Positions 13,030 to 19,999 are shown, counted from the first letter of the stretch. The stretch is 20,000 nt of DNA from an uncultured virus (IMG/VR IMGVR_UViG_3300005253_000005) (IMGVR_UViG_3300005253_000005), one strand, 5' to 3'. Program-made: numbers and translations. The notes: generated by a model from the sequence alone, not told the origin.

Positions 13030-13218
13030 TTATGTTATTCCTTCTTCTAGCTCTGGTTTAATAATAACATCTACAAACTCGTGTCCGCAAGGACAACTCA
13101 TTAAGACACCATCTTCGTGCTCAAAGACCTCATGAAGCTTAGGTCTATTACACTGAGAACAATGATGTTCTATAGAGTCTAGCTTCTTTGACTTTCTAAC
13201 TGTCTTAGGCTTGGGCAT
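13030..13218 (-). CDS. small zinc-ribbon protein
   Basis: 62 aa with CSQC...CPCGH; fits operon spacing. Confidence 0.55.
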   Translation of the reverse strand: MPKPKTVRKSKKLDSIEHHCSQCNRPKLHEVFEHEDGVLMSCPCGHEFVDVIIKPELEEGIT

Positions 13219-13228
13219 TATCTGTTAT

Positions 13229-13525
13229 CTATTTCAGGCTTACTCTGGTCTTGCCACCACATTCGTTACAGATATAGATTCCCCAATCTTGACTGTCAGA
13301 AGCTCGTTGTGTATGAGCTGTTACTTTAGAGCAAGCCATACAGACTATCTCAGTCGTCTCTACCTCTTCTACTTCCACTGCTGTCGTAAAAGGCTCGTTA
13401 TCATCTGATTCATTATCCTCTGGTTGTAGATCATCAGCCAGTGGCAAATTCTTCTTGCCACGAATTCGCTCTTTAGTCTCTTCGTTCTCATACCAGCCGC
13501 CGCCTGTGTGTATCCAATTACTCAT
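13229..13525 (-). CDS. zinc-ribbon protein with N-terminal HTGGGWYE motif
   Basis: 98 aa; HTGGGWYE...RIRGK, acidic linker, CMAC...CNEC; GGGAG SD. Confidence 0.7.
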   Translation of the reverse strand: MSNWIHTGGGWYENEETKERIRGKKNLPLADDLQPEDNESDDNEPFTTAVEVEEVETTEIVCMACSKVTAHTQRASDSQDWGIYICNECGGKTRVSLK

Positions 13526-14165: not shown

Positions 14166-14498
14166 TTAACTCTTAGCCAGAGTTTGACTTCTCAATTCTG
14201 CTAGTGATGGTTCTGTAGCTGCATCTGCACCTACTGGAACTGGCTCAGCAGGAATGCTAATCCCTGGTTCTATAGGGCACTGCTCTTCGTGATAACGGAT
14301 AAACGAACTAGCCACAAATTTCTTGCCACACCGAAGGCAAGAAATCAGATCCTTACCATCGTGAAGTTTAATATAGCCGATGTTGATAAGGGACTGGTCA
14401 TTCTTCATCATACCAGTCTCGATCTGAACGTATTCGCCGCGTTCTAGATGGCGATCACCATAGTCGAACTCGTGATAGATACCGTATCCGTCAGCCAT
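14166..14498 (-). CDS. C2HC zinc-finger protein downstream of MCP
   Basis: 110 aa; CLRCGKKF...YHEEQC; AAGGAG SD. Confidence 0.7.
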   Translation of the reverse strand: MADGYGIYHEFDYGDRHLERGEYVQIETGMMKNDQSLINIGYIKLHDGKDLISCLRCGKKFVASSFIRYHEEQCPIEPGISIPAEPVPVGADAATEPSLAELRSQTLAKS

Positions 14499-14510: not shown

Positions 14511-15461
14511 TTAGGCTACAACACTAGCAGCAAACTCGCCCATGTCTGCATCAATCTGCTTCTGGTCATAGTAAGTGTGAACTTCGATTGTATCCTTACG
14601 AAGCTTATCATCCGTAATTCTTCGTATGAACCAGGGCGCTGCACCACCACCTACTAGTGGCTTCCAAACGAACGTGTATCCGCCTGTTGGAACAAAAAGC
14701 CCAGGAGCAGAAGGTGTGTAGACAACAAGAGCGTGCTTACCCCAAATAGCAGCAAAGGCATCTGTTGCACCTTCAAGTGAAGTCGCCTCAATTGCATCAC
14801 CGACTAGAACCCTGTCAAGACGAACAAGCTGAGCGATCATCTGCTCGGTCACAGAGCCACCTGTGTACTTGACACGCTCTACAAGCAGAGGGTGATCAAG
14901 AAGCTTGTCCATAACTAGGTTGTTAGTAACTAGAGTATTGGCAGGCTGGCCTGACTTACCCAAGACGTTACTACGCATTGTACGAAGGTCTTGAATTGGG
15001 TCAGACGCTGCATAATCAGACCACTGAGCAGATTCAACAAAATCTGTTCCCCACTTACCTGTAGCAAAGAAGTCTGCTGCGAACTGCTTCTCCCAATGAA
15101 TCTGAACCATCTCAGTCAACCATCGAGTAGCATCTCTGTCCATATCATATGGAGCATCGGTATTCTGGCGAACTTCGACAGGAATCTCTTTACCAAGAGC
15201 AAAGTTCTTGTTGAAGAACGTCATAGTATTGTCAACCGTGAAGCCGCTAGTCGCAACAGGCGCACCTGGAGCACGAAGCTTCATCTGCTCTCGGAACCAC
15301 TTGTCCTTATCATAACGTGGAACGATGTCCGACTGTTTATTAGTCGGAACAATGGGAAAGATCTGAGAGGCGATATAACGCTTGTTCTGATAACCAATTG
15401 ACATATTAGTTAGCAGCGCATCAACGTGGACATCGCCTACGTCTGGCTGAAATCCTGCCAT
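14511..15461 (-). CDS. major capsid protein (HK97 fold, gpE-like family)
   Basis: 316 aa; DVHVDALLTNMSIGY.N...IA..IFP.VP N-terminus, QWSDYAASDPIQD, IWGKHA, GYTF motifs; GAGG SD; no delta domain. Confidence 0.9.
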   Translation of the reverse strand: MAGFQPDVGDVHVDALLTNMSIGYQNKRYIASQIFPIVPTNKQSDIVPRYDKDKWFREQMKLRAPGAPVATSGFTVDNTMTFFNKNFALGKEIPVEVRQNTDAPYDMDRDATRWLTEMVQIHWEKQFAADFFATGKWGTDFVESAQWSDYAASDPIQDLRTMRSNVLGKSGQPANTLVTNNLVMDKLLDHPLLVERVKYTGGSVTEQMIAQLVRLDRVLVGDAIEATSLEGATDAFAAIWGKHALVVYTPSAPGLFVPTGGYTFVWKPLVGGGAAPWFIRRITDDKLRKDTIEVHTYYDQKQIDADMGEFAASVVA

Positions 15462-16855: not shown

Positions 16856-16884
16856 ACTATCTTATATATGGCTGGTTTTGTCAA
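16856..16884 (-). promoter_or_regulatory. possible promoter for the scaffold-capsid operon
   Basis: TTGACA(16884-16879)-17 nt-GATAGT(16861-16856): perfect -35, imperfect -10. Confidence 0.4.
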
Positions 16885-16924: not shown

Positions 16925-16953
16925 TTGACACACCCCATAAGATATGGTAGCCT
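16925..16953 (+). promoter_or_regulatory. sigma70-like promoter for the antisense HTH gene
   Basis: TTGACA(16925-16930)-17 nt-TAGCCT(16948-16953) with TGn extension; ATG at 16964. Confidence 0.6.
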
Positions 16954-16963
16954 TGAAGACGCC

Positions 16964-17215
16964 ATGAACATAGATTGTGACAAGTGTTCAGTTTATCATA
17001 GACATGATCATATGGAAGAATGGATGACCAAACGTAATAAGAAGATCGTTTTACTGAAGCGAGCAGGGCTGTCTTTTAGAGCTATAGCCCTACGAGACGA
17101 GATAGCTCTTACACATCAGCAGGTACATCGAGTCTACCATCAGTGGAAAGGCCGTGTACCTCTTCGGGAGTCGGCATCACTCCAGGTGACAGAATTGCTG
17201 GCCCCCGCGGACTAG
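16964..17215 (+). CDS. helix-turn-helix DNA-binding protein, antisense to the head module
   Basis: 83 aa from ATG 16964; RNKKIVLLKRAGLSFRAIA...LTHQQVHRVY is an HTH pattern; has its own promoter and occupies the gap between protease and scaffold. Confidence 0.65.
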   Translation: MNIDCDKCSVYHRHDHMEEWMTKRNKKIVLLKRAGLSFRAIALRDEIALTHQQVHRVYHQWKGRVPLRESASLQVTELLAPAD

Positions 17216-17798
17216 CACCTGTTAACTTACCACTCATAATTTTATTCCAGATTTCGTCATTAGGCACATACAGTACTACCATCCATGTACCCAGCACAAT
17301 ACTGTGCCCATTAAGCACGAAGTCTACAGGCGTTATATAACTCTGAGCTATAAAGACACCTGACGTTCTTTTACTATGCTCTTCAAAGATATGAGCTTCT
17401 CCAAGACCGTATCTAACTAAAAAGCGATGAGCCATTAATTCCACATCTTCAAGTGGAAACCATTGATCATCTGTATCAAGAGTATTTGGTTTAACAACTA
17501 TAAGATAAACTAAACGCTGAGAGTCATCTGCTTTAACTATCTTTATTGTCTCTTTTTCAGATTTCTTATAACCTGAACCAGATCGTTTACGAACATGAGC
17601 AGCACGATGATGCTTGTCGCATAACCATACTATATGTTTAGTGCCACTGTAAGAACCAGTAGGATGATGAGCCTGTGTTTTACCTGCGCCACATCTTGCA
17701 CACTTACCACGTTTTAGCTTACCTGATTTAACAGCAGCCCATACAGAAGAATAGGCAGAGTTACGATCTGGCATAGTCGCATTTTCTTTAGTGCCCAT
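17109..17798 (-). CDS. XkdF-like prohead protease with N-terminal HNH-like zinc domain
   Basis: C-terminal KADDSQRLVY...PNTLDTDDQW...MAHRF...EEHS...SYITPVDF...GTWM...IWNKIMSGKLTGASPRG matches the XkdF pattern. N-terminal AVKSGKLKRGKCARCG...AHH...WLCDKHHRAAH. Confidence 0.85.
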   Translation of the reverse strand: MGTKENATMPDRNSAYSSVWAAVKSGKLKRGKCARCGAGKTQAHHPTGSYSGTKHIVWLCDKHHRAAHVRKRSGSGYKKSEKETIKIVKADDSQRLVYLIVVKPNTLDTDDQWFPLEDVELMAHRFLVRYGLGEAHIFEEHSKRTSGVFIAQSYITPVDFVLNGHSIVLGTWMVVLYVPNDEIWNKIMSGKLTGASPRGPAILSPGVMPTPEEVHGLSTDGRLDVPADV

Positions 17799-18025
17799 TA
17801 TTTAAATAAGTCTACTATCACATCTCGGATACCAAAGATAAACAAAGGAGACATTAATCCTAATAATGCACCTGCGCCGAGTACACGCTGCATCCATGTT
17901 TCTAGAACGCCTAATCGTCCATTCTGCTCTTTCTGATGAATCTCCATAACCTCTATCGTCTCTTTAATATTTTCAGTACGTTCATCTAGTCGTCCAAGAA
18001 GCGCATCGCGTTCTGCTGCATCCAT
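17798..18025 (-). CDS. XhlA/holin-like single-TM membrane protein
   Basis: 75 aa; coiled coil (LGRLDERT...QNGRLGVLE) followed by a hydrophobic segment. Confidence 0.55.
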   Translation of the reverse strand: MDAAERDALLGRLDERTENIKETIEVMEIHQKEQNGRLGVLETWMQRVLGAGALLGLMSPLFIFGIRDVIVDLFK

Positions 18026-18649
18026 TTAATCAAAACCCTCATCTTCATCTGGTGACTTAAACTTACAGATAGATAACGCCACACCATCATCATCTTTATC
18101 GCTAAGAAGACTGTCTACATGAACATCTCCAGAATCAGGCTGTGCTTTAACGATTATATACTCTCCTGGCTTAAATAAATCACATGTGCCGAACTGTTCA
18201 ATATCACCTTCTACCAGCTGGCACACACCTGTATTACCTTCAAGATCAAAGAAGCTACAACTGGTACAGATGCGTCCGCTCCGCATCTGTTCATCTGTAG
18301 CTTTATCTTGATAATTAACTAAGTCTTTACTTAGAACACCAGCTGCTTTTTCTATCACTACTGGCTTTTTAGTTATTTTGCCTGTTCCACCAGCATGGCC
18401 TCTAGCTTTCTTCATAGCATCTTGTACTATAGCAGTAGGAAGTTGAGTAGTAAGATGAGAAGCAAACTTTACTAGAAACCGTTTAGTAGGAGTTTCGCGT
18501 TCCATCTCTTCGCGTAGGGACTTCTTAATCTTCGCAGTACATTGCTCACAGGCCACAGCCTTATCAGGTAACTTCTGTCCTGGTTTAGCTTTAACCTTAT
18601 CATTACAGACAGCACACATAAGGCGTCGAACTTTCTGAGTTGCAGGCAT
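18026..18649 (-). CDS. Cys-rich protein: Zn ribbon, HiPIP-like domain and MCP-N-terminus-like peptide
   Basis: CAVC...CEQC; YQD...CTSCSFF-x-C.LVEGDI...GTC..F (C-x2-C-x11-C-x12-C); QPDSGDVHVDSLL. Confidence 0.7.
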   Translation of the reverse strand: MPATQKVRRLMCAVCNDKVKAKPGQKLPDKAVACEQCTAKIKKSLREEMERETPTKRFLVKFASHLTTQLPTAIVQDAMKKARGHAGGTGKITKKPVVIEKAAGVLSKDLVNYQDKATDEQMRSGRICTSCSFFDLEGNTGVCQLVEGDIEQFGTCDLFKPGEYIIVKAQPDSGDVHVDSLLSDKDDDGVALSICKFKSPDEDEGFD

Positions 18650-18981
18650 TATGCTGCCAAACCTTCCTCAACCTGAAACTGGAAACGTTCTGTCTGTTGA
18701 GCACTACTTGAAAAAGTTAATTGTAGTTGACCTGAATAAGTACCAGCCGCTGTAATCCCGCCAGTAGGAAGAGTATAATCAATACGACCTGTAGGTTTAT
18801 CTATAATAGTAGCATTTACATCACCACCAGAGAATAGATTGGCTACAGCATCGTGTTTTCGTATAAAGCACTTAACTGATGTCAGGTCAGGATTTGAAAG
18901 ATCAACAACATTGCCATCTTCATCTTTAATAGTAAATTTAAACTTTGGGAGAGTATCATCCTTGAAGTATTTAACCGCCAT
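18649..18981 (-). CDS. BppU N-terminal-like Ig-fold virion protein
   Basis: 110 aa; DTLPKFKFTIKDEDGNVVDLS...TGRIDY...AGTYSGQLQLTF; CAGGAG SD. Confidence 0.7.
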   Translation of the reverse strand: MAVKYFKDDTLPKFKFTIKDEDGNVVDLSNPDLTSVKCFIRKHDAVANLFSGGDVNATIIDKPTGRIDYTLPTGGITAAGTYSGQLQLTFSSSAQQTERFQFQVEEGLAA

Positions 18982-19999
18982 CTTCTTTAGACTCCTGTAT
19001 ATTGATCATGTGGCCTGATATCAATTCAAGAGGTATTATAACAGACGTTTTTACCAATGAGAGATTCCCACTATCTAGTCCTATAGATAGGATATCAGTC
19101 TTTTTTACCGTTGTCAAGACACCACTATAAAGAGTTAAGGTAATAGCTAACAGTACTTCAGGTATTAATTTTAATACACCTGTAGCGCTTGGCTGAACAC
19201 CTGCTAACGCTCGCGTTGCTGCCCTACTCCGTACAAGAATTCCTGCAGCTGCAGTCTGACTGCCAACTATTATTCTAAGAGCTTTCTCAATCCGTATTAA
19301 TGTACCAGCTGAGACAGGTTGTGAACCTGATATTGTTCGATCAGCACCCTTTTCAGCTGATTCTAATGTCCCTGTTAATGCAGGTTGACTACCGATAACA
19401 GATCGGATAGCTTTTTCAGTGCGAATAAGTACCGCAGCTGCTGTCAGCTGAATGCCTGCAGATGATCGTTTCGCTTGTTTCTTACGAGATAAAGTGCCAG
19501 AAGGAGCAAGTTGAACTCCTGTGAGAACTCGAACAGCTTTTTCTATCCTGGTTAAAGCTCCAGTAGCTGATGGCTGGCTACCTACAAGATCACGCTTCGC
19601 AATATAGGTAAGAGTACCTGTAGCATTAAGCTGAGAACCTGAGAGTGATCGCAGAGCCTTTTCTATATGGATAAGAATTCCAGTTGCTGCGAGCTGGACT
19701 CCAGGTATAGCGCGAACGCCCTGTTTTATACGAGTGAAAATGCCTGTAGATGCTGATTGAATTCCTGTGAGAGTCCGCTTTCCCTGTTCTATACGGATGA
19801 GTGTTCCTGTTGCAGATAGTTGACTTCCAGATATCTGGCGAGAAGTTATAAGTGTCGCAGAGACTGTACCAGATGATGTAGGTTGATTACCAGATAAAGA
19901 TCGAGAGGCTTTTTCAATTCTAGCAAGGGTACTCGTAGCAGATAACTGACTACCTGATACAGAGCGTTGTAGTAGTACAGTAAGTGCCCCAGTTGAATT
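18971..19999 (-). CDS. fibre/shaft protein with ~21-aa tandem repeats, 5' end outside window
   Basis: Not in the ORF track; hand translation gives 342 sense codons ending ...QESKEDGG-TAA at 18973-18971, with 13 repeats of R-x-[LIV]-x-G-x-Q-x3-[TS]-G-x-L-x-R-x-E-K-A. Confidence 0.8.
   Translation of the reverse strand, partial: NSTGALTVLLQRSVSGSQLSATSTLARIEKASRSLSGNQPTSSGTVSATLITSRQISGSQLSATGTLIRIEQGKRTLTGIQSASTGIFTRIKQGVRAIPGVQLAATGILIHIEKALRSLSGSQLNATGTLTYIAKRDLVGSQPSATGALTRIEKAVRVLTGVQLAPSGTLSRKKQAKRSSAGIQLTAAAVLIRTEKAIRSVIGSQPALTGTLESAEKGADRTISGSQPVSAGTLIRIEKALRIIVGSQTAAAGILVRSRAATRALAGVQPSATGVLKLIPEVLLAITLTLYSGVLTTVKKTDILSIGLDSGNLSLVKTSVIIPLELISGHMINIQESKEDGG

Follow-up and report, generated by a model that had tools for sequence, protein, structure and literature searches.

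Why should a phage head protein carry near its end a copy of the beginning of the major capsid protein? The question is raised by a stretch of 20,000 nucleotides from an uncultured virus (IMGVR_UViG_3300005253_000005), referred to here as the window. A 207-residue protein encoded in its head module carries in its tail the peptide QPDSGDVHVDSLL, and the tip of the N-terminal arm (N-arm) of the capsid protein reads QPDVGDVHVDALL. The resemblance is real, is conserved among homologues and recurs on other head proteins; we propose tentatively that the peptide, called the tag below, may serve for docking.

The tag copies the tip of the capsid N-arm

The two 13-mers are identical at 11 of 13 residues, their DNA at 24 of 39 bases. 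BLASTP aligns the 207-residue protein with the capsid protein at 29.6 bits (E 3e-5). In an ungapped BLOSUM62 scan of all six-frame open reading frames (ORFs) of the window with the capsid 13-mer, the tag scores 59 and the next best site, self excluded, scores 20. The pattern GD[VIL]H[VIL] is found in the six frames of the window only at the tag and at the capsid site; the plus strand, read at both sites, gives nothing. The tag keeps the P, V, H and L that are invariant in the capsid family and the near-invariant D. The match to capsid residues 5–17, first pointed out in a reading of the sequence alone (the sequence-only reading), is real and beyond chance.

The same reading had counted different codons at nine of the 11 identical residues, and this count was borne out. 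Two codons are shared, compared with 4.77 expected under independent draws from the codon usage of the window, and because of this shortfall no trace of a recent DNA copy is left. The codon divergence supports the view, also put forward in that reading, that selection acts on the peptide and not on the DNA.

The 207-residue protein and its family

Among 5.8 billion proteins searched, the 207-residue protein has 22 relatives, all metagenomic; a word-based homologue search with the tail alone (residues 160–207) gave only two candidates. In 50,697 phage records tblastn found no match to the protein. It matches no PHROG family, its only Pfam match is below threshold, and it has no sequence relative among solved structures. 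The nearest related record, the 34.8-kb fragment G001, does not contain the gene.

The family has a common module order: a basic CxxC...CxxC N-terminus, a helical module ending in ARGHAGGTGK, a variable middle and a conserved tail. The tail starts with K-[S/A]-QPDSxDVHVDxLL, followed by an acidic linker of variable sequence and the element LCKFESPD. Rather than being absent from homologues, which would have spoken against the sequence-only reading, the peptide is kept in 21 of the 22, down to 41% overall identity; P0016 is the member that lost it. D175 and H177 are nearly invariant in the family tail. In the second element, C195, F197 and S199 are invariant and K196 and P200 nearly so (22 sequences).

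In most members a 4-Cys HiPIP-like domain makes up the variable middle. P0015 and P0017–P0020 (5 of 22) lack it, a DUF6582-like segment replaces it in P0021 and P0022, and both are present together in P0013; the peptide is conserved whether or not the domain is there. The window protein gives no match to Pfam HIPIP (PF01355) at E<=0.01. The homologous domain of P0033, a protease fusion described below, reaches 29.2 bits against this family (cut-off 22), and that of P0030 is weak at 14.6 bits. The HiPIP-type Cys spacing, C-x2-C...C...C, is present in the 207-residue protein and its cysteines are putative ligands of a 4Fe-4S cluster, in a region that AlphaFold2 (AF2) models with low confidence. 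The AF2 model of the protein has a mean predicted local distance difference test (pLDDT) score of 50, with residues 163–207 below 50. Such predicted disorder of the tail is as expected for a docking peptide.

One proposal of the sequence-only reading was that the peptide loads or anchors the HiPIP-like protein. The loss of the domain in five members and its replacement in others do not agree with this; in addition, cleavage at the predicted site, which is downstream of the domain, would detach it from the tag. The HiPIP-like domain is optional in the family and, after the predicted cleavage, would not be the tagged end.

The motif recurs in other head proteins

Capsid-related loci were scanned with their own capsid 13-mer and with a relaxed pattern. 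Copies in the clade of the window score 41–55 with the own 13-mer. A second clade with copies has capsid proteins that begin QPT/QPS..(D/Q)VH(V/I)DAIL. In L033 a 560-residue ORF contains an XkdF protease domain, then ...FKKG-QPTPSEVHVDS... and then a basic run. Basic runs also follow the motif in L042 (516-residue ORF, ...ITKS-EPTSTDVHLQT...), L079 (936 residues, ...VSKE-TPTVSSVHLET...) and L062 (831 residues, ...VLKA-DPTVSEVHADS...), together with DUF6321 in the first two and a HiPIP-like 4-Cys segment in the third. The L062 ORF lies at L062:595-3090. As a control, antisense ORFs gave seven matches to the relaxed pattern in 394,710 residues.

With the family alignment as profile, 15 proteins were found at E<=0.001 among 1.84 billion representatives. 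P0027 and P0032 consist of a helical module, a D12 DNA methyltransferase, the motif as K-S-QPG/QPD..DVHV.., a basic run and an XkdF protease. P0033 has a HiPIP domain, LK-S-QPDASDTHVDAIV, a basic run and an XkdF protease. P0030 and P0034 are Mu-like_Pro protease/scaffold fusions, whose N-terminal extensions contain SEPGVNAVHVNAPL and SEPDTSDVHVNAPV. P0028 and P0031 share other modules, with no copy of the motif visible. In loci seeded with the Mu-I type proteins (L102, L119 and L120), the motif is located in the N-terminal part of protease/scaffold fusions. The protease/scaffold protein of L108 starts MTNPTPTDVHVPAPLG, with the motif at the very N-terminus; its capsid-like N-terminus is already exposed and therefore no cleavage would be needed.

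The motif thus accompanies two unrelated protease families, XkdF and Mu-like_Pro, in phages whose own capsid protein begins with it. It is not peculiar to the HiPIP-like protein that the sequence-only reading pointed out: it also lies beside XkdF and Mu-I proteases and in cargo-like polyproteins. Common to all systems with a tag are the capsid family and a C-terminal 'NPxLYxxY' element in the scaffold.

Separately, the HiPIP-like 4-Cys domain itself recurs in head-module proteins, fused to XkdF or Mu-I proteases. A degenerate copy of the motif, PTPEEVHGL, in the C-terminal tail of the window protease was discarded, as it is not conserved in the L025 homologue. The tag-bearing ORF of L042 matches cultured phages via its DUF6321 part only, and P0033 matches many XkdF proteases among cultured phages. 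Just one of these matches, ORF10 of Bacillus phage PBP180, extends to the motif region of P0033; it shows only a loose 'THVSYVD', and the capsid protein of this phage lacks the motif. No cultured phage with the tag was found among the matches to the 207-residue protein, the L042 ORF and P0033.

A predicted prohead-protease site precedes the tag

The pattern [IVLMFY]-x-K-[SAG] was counted as a possible cleavage site, with the scaffold candidate of the window compared to 2000 shuffles. The scaffold contains 12 such sites (one of which precedes its first ATG), where 2.0 are expected, an enrichment of about six-fold that none of the 2000 shuffles reached. Control patterns are flat in the same protein: hydrophobic-x-E-[SAG] occurs 0 times (1.75 expected), hydrophobic-x-K-[DE] once (2.1 expected) and the reversed pattern twice (2.1 expected). 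The 207-residue protein has four sites where 1.25 are expected (p about 0.03), and in the 20 other ORFs tested the count is at background level. Of 22 distinct NPxLYxxY scaffolds, 14 are enriched (p<=0.004), one is marginal (0.042) and seven are not enriched. The enrichment is four- to eight-fold in the window scaffold and in those of L002, L005, L041, L042, L046, L048, L060, L062, L072, L077, L079, L080 and L094. Because of the excess in the window scaffold, hydrophobic-x-Lys-[Ser/Ala/Gly] is probably a prohead-protease site, and hydrophobic-x-Lys|Ser/Ala may be a rule, with exceptions, for the specificity of XkdF proteases.

In the 207-residue family the sites lie at module boundaries: K43 in 19 of 22 members, K81 in 14, K101 in 16 and K168 in all 22. 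The last of these is the IVK/A site that the sequence-only reading had named directly before the tag. Located in a head module by an XkdF protease, and with scaffold-type sites at conserved positions, the protein is a predicted substrate, and we infer a cut between K168 and A169. Outside the family, the XkdF-linked architectures have the strict pattern before the motif in five of seven cases and the Lys in place in all seven. In the Mu-I lineage hydrophobic-x-K-[SAG] does not precede the motif.

The capsid N-arm

The AF2 model of the capsid protein has the HK97 fold (mean pLDDT 83.4), with 3BJQ as the nearest solved structure. Residues 1–3 and 9–22 are below a pLDDT of 50 and are the sole low-confidence part, as expected for an arm whose tip needs a partner. 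In 47 distinct family members (36–89% identity to the window protein), P6, V11, H12, L17 and S21 do not vary, and D10 and T18 hardly do.

The motif usually begins one to four residues past the initiator Met. Three capsid proteins have leaders of 8–10 residues, L037 (L037:6974-7981), L050 (L050:4930-5946) and L052 (L052:3942-4952), and these end right before the motif in I-R-K|S, V-M-K|A and V-L-K|A, respectively. Ribosome-binding sites are convincing for the long-leader starts of L037 and L050; the start of L052 is unclear. The leader in L091 has I-R-K-T. The arrangement suggests that the N-termini of the first three are trimmed by the prohead protease, and a free N-terminus of the motif seems to matter. 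It also fits the proposal made in the sequence-only reading that cleavage of the 207-residue protein would expose an N-terminus like that of the capsid protein.

In phage JBD30, a distant relative, the N-arm (residues 6–25) is helical in the procapsid; in mature heads it forms an extended hook to a neighbouring capsomer, paired with another hook at the pseudo-twofold axes (PMC11445458). The arm bends beside the portal and is not described there as cleaved (PMC11445458). In procapsids of 80alpha, the N-arm helix of the capsid protein is bound by the C-terminal helix-and-hook of the scaffold (PMC5644958). The JBD30-like capsid protein of phage Young lacks the DVHV signature.

Organisation of the head module

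All genes in this part of the window lie on the minus strand (Table 1). In the order of transcription, a long repeat protein, a BppU_N-like 110-residue ORF, the 207-residue protein, a 75-residue ORF and the XkdF-type protease are followed by the scaffold candidate, a cement-like protein, the capsid protein, and head-completion and tail genes. The gene of the 207-residue protein precedes that of the protease by 228 bases. L002, a related contig of 67 kb, encodes a Mu-type portal upstream of the same gene block. Because of this portal and the setting among head genes, the 207-residue protein is taken to belong to head morphogenesis. The scaffold candidate is acidic and Lys-rich, with a C-terminal helix-NP-helix, 'NPTLYDQY', a motif common to the scaffolds of many related loci.

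Table 1. Location of the features discussed (aa, amino acid residues)
Feature	Position	Strand	Basis
207-aa head-module protein with tag	18026-18649	minus	ORF; 22 homologues
Zn-ribbon-like CxxC...CxxC module	aa 12-37 of 207-aa protein	minus	Family alignment
Conserved helical module ending ARGHAGGTGK	aa 54-91 of 207-aa protein	minus	Family alignment
HiPIP-like 4-Cys domain	18167-18277, aa 125-161	minus	C128-x2-C131-x11-C143-x12-C156
Predicted prohead-protease site I-V-K-A	18143-18154, aa 166-169	minus	Site pattern in 22/22 members
Tail	aa 169-207 of 207-aa protein	minus	Family alignment
Capsid N-arm tip copy, QPDSGDVHVDSLL	18104-18142, aa 170-182 of 207-aa ORF	minus	Translation
Second conserved tail element C-K-F-K-S-P	18050-18067, aa 195-200	minus	Family consensus LCKFESPD; acidic end after
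Prohead protease, XkdF type	17109-17798	minus	Peptidase_S78_2 aa 86-199, Pfam E 6.1e-19; PHROG head maturation protease
Scaffolding protein candidate, 315 aa	15937-16884	minus	ORF from TTG at 16884; first ATG 16713
Major capsid protein, 316 aa	14511-15461	minus	phrog_1005 'major head protein' E 2.2e-72; Pfam Phage_cap_E
Capsid N-arm tip (source motif), QPDVGDVHVDALL	15411-15449, capsid aa 5-17	minus	Translation

Several neighbours merit description. Residues 10–74 of the protease (17577-17771, minus strand) are HNH-like and Cys/His-rich, with PHROG matches to endonuclease/HNH families (phrog_2340, E 9.9e-9, and phrog_589); such an N-terminal part is an unusual partner for a head protease. A 96-residue helix-turn-helix-like ORF (16925-17215, plus strand) runs antisense within the module, occupies the space between protease and scaffold and extends into the 3' end of the protease gene. 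It is probably a real gene because it is 79% identical over 94 residues to its L002 equivalent. The 75-residue ORF between the 207-residue gene and the protease (17798-18025, minus strand) has a hydrophobic C-terminal stretch and no family match. The repeat protein (18971-19999, minus strand, continuing in L001:1903-5679) is built of units of about 26 residues (SGSQLSATGTL.RIEKA.R.L) and lies between the portal and the 207-residue gene. It is 1258 residues long in L001 and 951 in L002, where its N-terminus weakly matches 'head protein' PHROGs. Directly after the portal gene, L002 encodes a GroES-like (Cpn10) 91-residue ORF (L002:1781-2056). Three small ORFs (13030-13218, 13229-13525 and 14166-14498, minus strand), Cys-rich and zinc-ribbon-like, are interspersed among the head genes that lie downstream of the capsid gene, with no confident family match.

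Discussion

The sequence-only reading stands in part: the match, the selection on the peptide, its conservation and the site before it have held, while the HiPIP-like domain as a constant cargo has not, and the motif extends beyond this one protein. The explanation that we favour, tentatively and as a little short of probable, is that the peptide is a tag for docking, that its partner is also the partner of the capsid N-arm tip, and that the protease cuts apart the modules around it. The tag, on a head-module protein or on a fragment that keeps it, would engage whatever binds the capsid N-arm tip as the procapsid assembles, and the tagged protein would be co-assembled inside. The XkdF-type protease would then cut at hydrophobic-x-Lys|Ser/Ala sites, at K168|A169 before the tag and also at K43, K81 and K101, so that the Zn-ribbon, helical and HiPIP-like modules would be parted from a tail of 39 residues with a new, capsid-like N-terminus. 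By analogy, the most likely partner is the C-terminal helix-turn-helix of the scaffold, favoured first because the scaffold C-terminus of 80alpha binds the N-arm helix of its capsid protein; otherwise it may be the receiving site on a neighbouring capsid subunit. A complex prediction of the capsid protein (47-row alignment) with tail residues 169–207 (22 rows) gave 0.00 in two runs against a mark of 0.32; made without controls, it counts neither for nor against binding.

Covariation between the tag and the capsid protein of the same virus, which the sequence-only reading had suggested checking, was found between lineages. Thirteen cognate pairs of capsid motif and copy score 531 in total, the mean of shuffled pairs is 461.5, and 4 of 20000 shuffles reach the observed score. 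At position 12 the majority residue of capsid and copy agrees in each of the three lineages (L/L, I/I and P/P). Position 3 is D/D in the clade of the window and T/T in the second clade, and is mixed in the Mu-I copies (S, T, D, G). We regard covariation as weak support for a docking tag.

A number of observations weigh against this explanation. When the pairs are shuffled within the three lineages, the mean is 520.6 and 2626 of 20000 shuffles reach the observed score, so the covariation holds between lineages and not within them, and the signal between them rests on these three groups. The QPT capsid motif matches the tags of the window's clade slightly better than those of its own (41.2 versus 37.0). 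Most relatives do without a tag: of 80 capsid-seeded loci, 74 have the capsid motif and 42 at least 4 kb of upstream sequence, and 11 of these 42 have an upstream match to the pattern, of which 10 are convincing and one (L032) was judged to be chance. Roseobacter phage RDJL Phi 1, Arthrobacter phage Kharcho and Rhizobium phage RHph_Y60 have no copy within 7 kb. The seven unenriched scaffolds include those of L089 and L098, which do encode XkdF proteases. The cut at K168 would strip the tag from the HiPIP-like and upstream modules, and loading of these as cargo therefore requires docking before cleavage. The conserved CKFESP element of the tail falls outside the account altogether.

It is also conceivable, but unlikely, that the motif is a recognition element of the prohead protease, binding it as an exosite or prime-side ligand; cuts at adjacent K|S/A sites of accessory proteins would thereby be efficient, and it would be through the capsid N-arm that the protease is drawn into the procapsid. 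Such a role would agree with the constant position of the motif directly after the predicted site, both in the 22 family members and, by the strict pattern or at least the Lys, in the seven other architectures. In L033, P0027, P0032 and P0033, moreover, the motif flanks the protease domain in the manner of self-release sites. However, the 12 sites of the scaffold lack the motif, so cutting does not need it; because these sites precede unrelated residues, the motif must do more than mark a cut. It also accompanies two unrelated protease folds, in the Mu-I lineage without the preceding pattern, and in L108 it is N-terminal from the start. On account of the scaffold sites that lack it and of the two protease families, we take the motif to be a binding element in its own right.

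Quite unlikely, in our view, is a modulator or cap, in which the capsid-like N-terminus competes for or fills N-arm sites with no loading of cargo, for example by occupying partnerless sites at the portal vertex or by holding capsid subunits from premature polymerisation. The gene between a Mu-type portal and the protease would be well placed for this, and the predicted tag-bearing product in the family is a 39-residue peptide with a second conserved element rather than a large domain. The pairing of JBD30 N-arm hooks across the pseudo-twofold axes and their bending by the portal would offer such sites (PMC11445458). Other lineages, however, place the tag on large domains, the protease and the DUF6321 polyproteins, which looks like domain recruitment.

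That the two proteins share no partner and the motif has an intrinsic function in each, for example as a His/Asp/Cys metal site or in folding, is improbable: the conservation of D175, H177 and C195 in the tail and of H12 in capsid proteins would suit it, but neither the capsid protein nor the other tag-bearing proteins have an equivalent of C195, and disorder is predicted for the region in the 207-residue protein as well as in the capsid protein. A functionless relic of an old duplication of the 5' end of the capsid gene, or a chance resemblance, is highly improbable given the BLASTP E value, the scan score of 59 against 20, conservation in all but one homologue with saturated synonymous sites and recurrence in several unrelated architectures; duplication may at most have been the origin of the motif.

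The docking tag may be compared with known ways of entering a capsid. The capsid targeting sequence (CTS) of T4 is carried by the internal proteins IPI–III and Alt and is removed by the prohead protease gp21. The likeness is that of a short peptide, common to otherwise unrelated head proteins and adjoining a prohead-protease site (a predicted one in the present case), with the tag and the rest separated during maturation. The CTS, in contrast, is N-terminal, directs proteins to the scaffolding core and does not resemble the capsid protein. The present tag copies the capsid N-arm tip and lies downstream of the predicted cut, internal or C-terminal (25 residues follow it in the 207-residue protein), and the predicted site is of the form hydrophobic-x-Lys|Ser/Ala, for an XkdF-type protease.

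CpmB of SaPI1 and the scaffolding protein of 80alpha are similar at their C-terminal, capsid-binding end, by which they compete. In that system, too, the binding peptide of one partner is copied, and the copy gives another protein access to the same interface. The capsid N-arm is part of this interface (PMC5644958). A satellite copies the scaffold end in that case and redirects capsid size, whereas in the present phages their own head proteins would copy the capsid side of the presumed interface. Encapsulin cargo-loading peptides are short terminal cargo peptides that dock inside an HK97-fold shell, and encapsulin shells are among the fold matches of the capsid model. The proposed docking of the tag would be alike, but encapsulin peptides are not copies of the shell protein and neither a protease nor a scaffold is involved. 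The prohead protease of HK97, gp4, binds the delta domain of the capsid protein through its C-terminal tail. This is again a short peptide of a protease that secures entry into the procapsid, and in P0027, P0032, P0033 and L033 the tag adjoins the protease domain. The protease family of gp4 is a different one, however, its tag is no capsid copy, and the present capsid protein has no delta domain.

Polyvalent proteins are multi-domain proteins of head modules that are predicted to be packaged (Iyer et al. 2017; PMC5512222). Of the proteins with a tag, those of L042, L079 and L062 (516–936 residues) and the methyltransferase–protease fusions are of this general kind; the window protein, with 207 residues and no recognised enzyme domain, is not. 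The passages searched in that paper contain neither 'HiPIP' nor 'major capsid' and describe no capsid-mimicking tag (PMC5512222). A limited search of the open-access literature, which is no proof of absence, found no description of a tag that mimics a capsid N-arm. The difference from the known tags is that a phage copies the tip of its own capsid N-arm, with the copy placed after a Lys-type site and used again on proteases and on large head proteins.

In its widest form, which is possible though rather doubtful, the docking tag would be a portable code of self-mimicry. Phages with capsids of the Phage_cap_E type would equip proteases and protease/scaffold fusions, as well as methyltransferase fusions and cargo-like polyproteins, with copies of the N-arm tip, the copy being either N-terminal or unmasked by the protease at hydrophobic-x-Lys|Ser/Ala, and these copies would plug into N-arm sites on the scaffold or the lattice, for example by the portal, across the two unrelated protease families.

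The HiPIP-like, iron-sulfur-type domain emerges as a recurring passenger of phage head modules, and we know of no explanation for its presence there. If the predicted cleavage is correct, hydrophobic-x-Lys|Ser/Ala would be a first specificity rule for the XkdF proteases, a family that has been little studied. Should the proposed docking be right, the tag would provide a handle of 13–17 residues to load foreign proteins into HK97-fold capsids. It would also show how procapsids with neither a delta domain nor a T4-like core take in the right number of proteases and packaged enzymes, in a large group of phages that includes many uncultured marine and soil phages.

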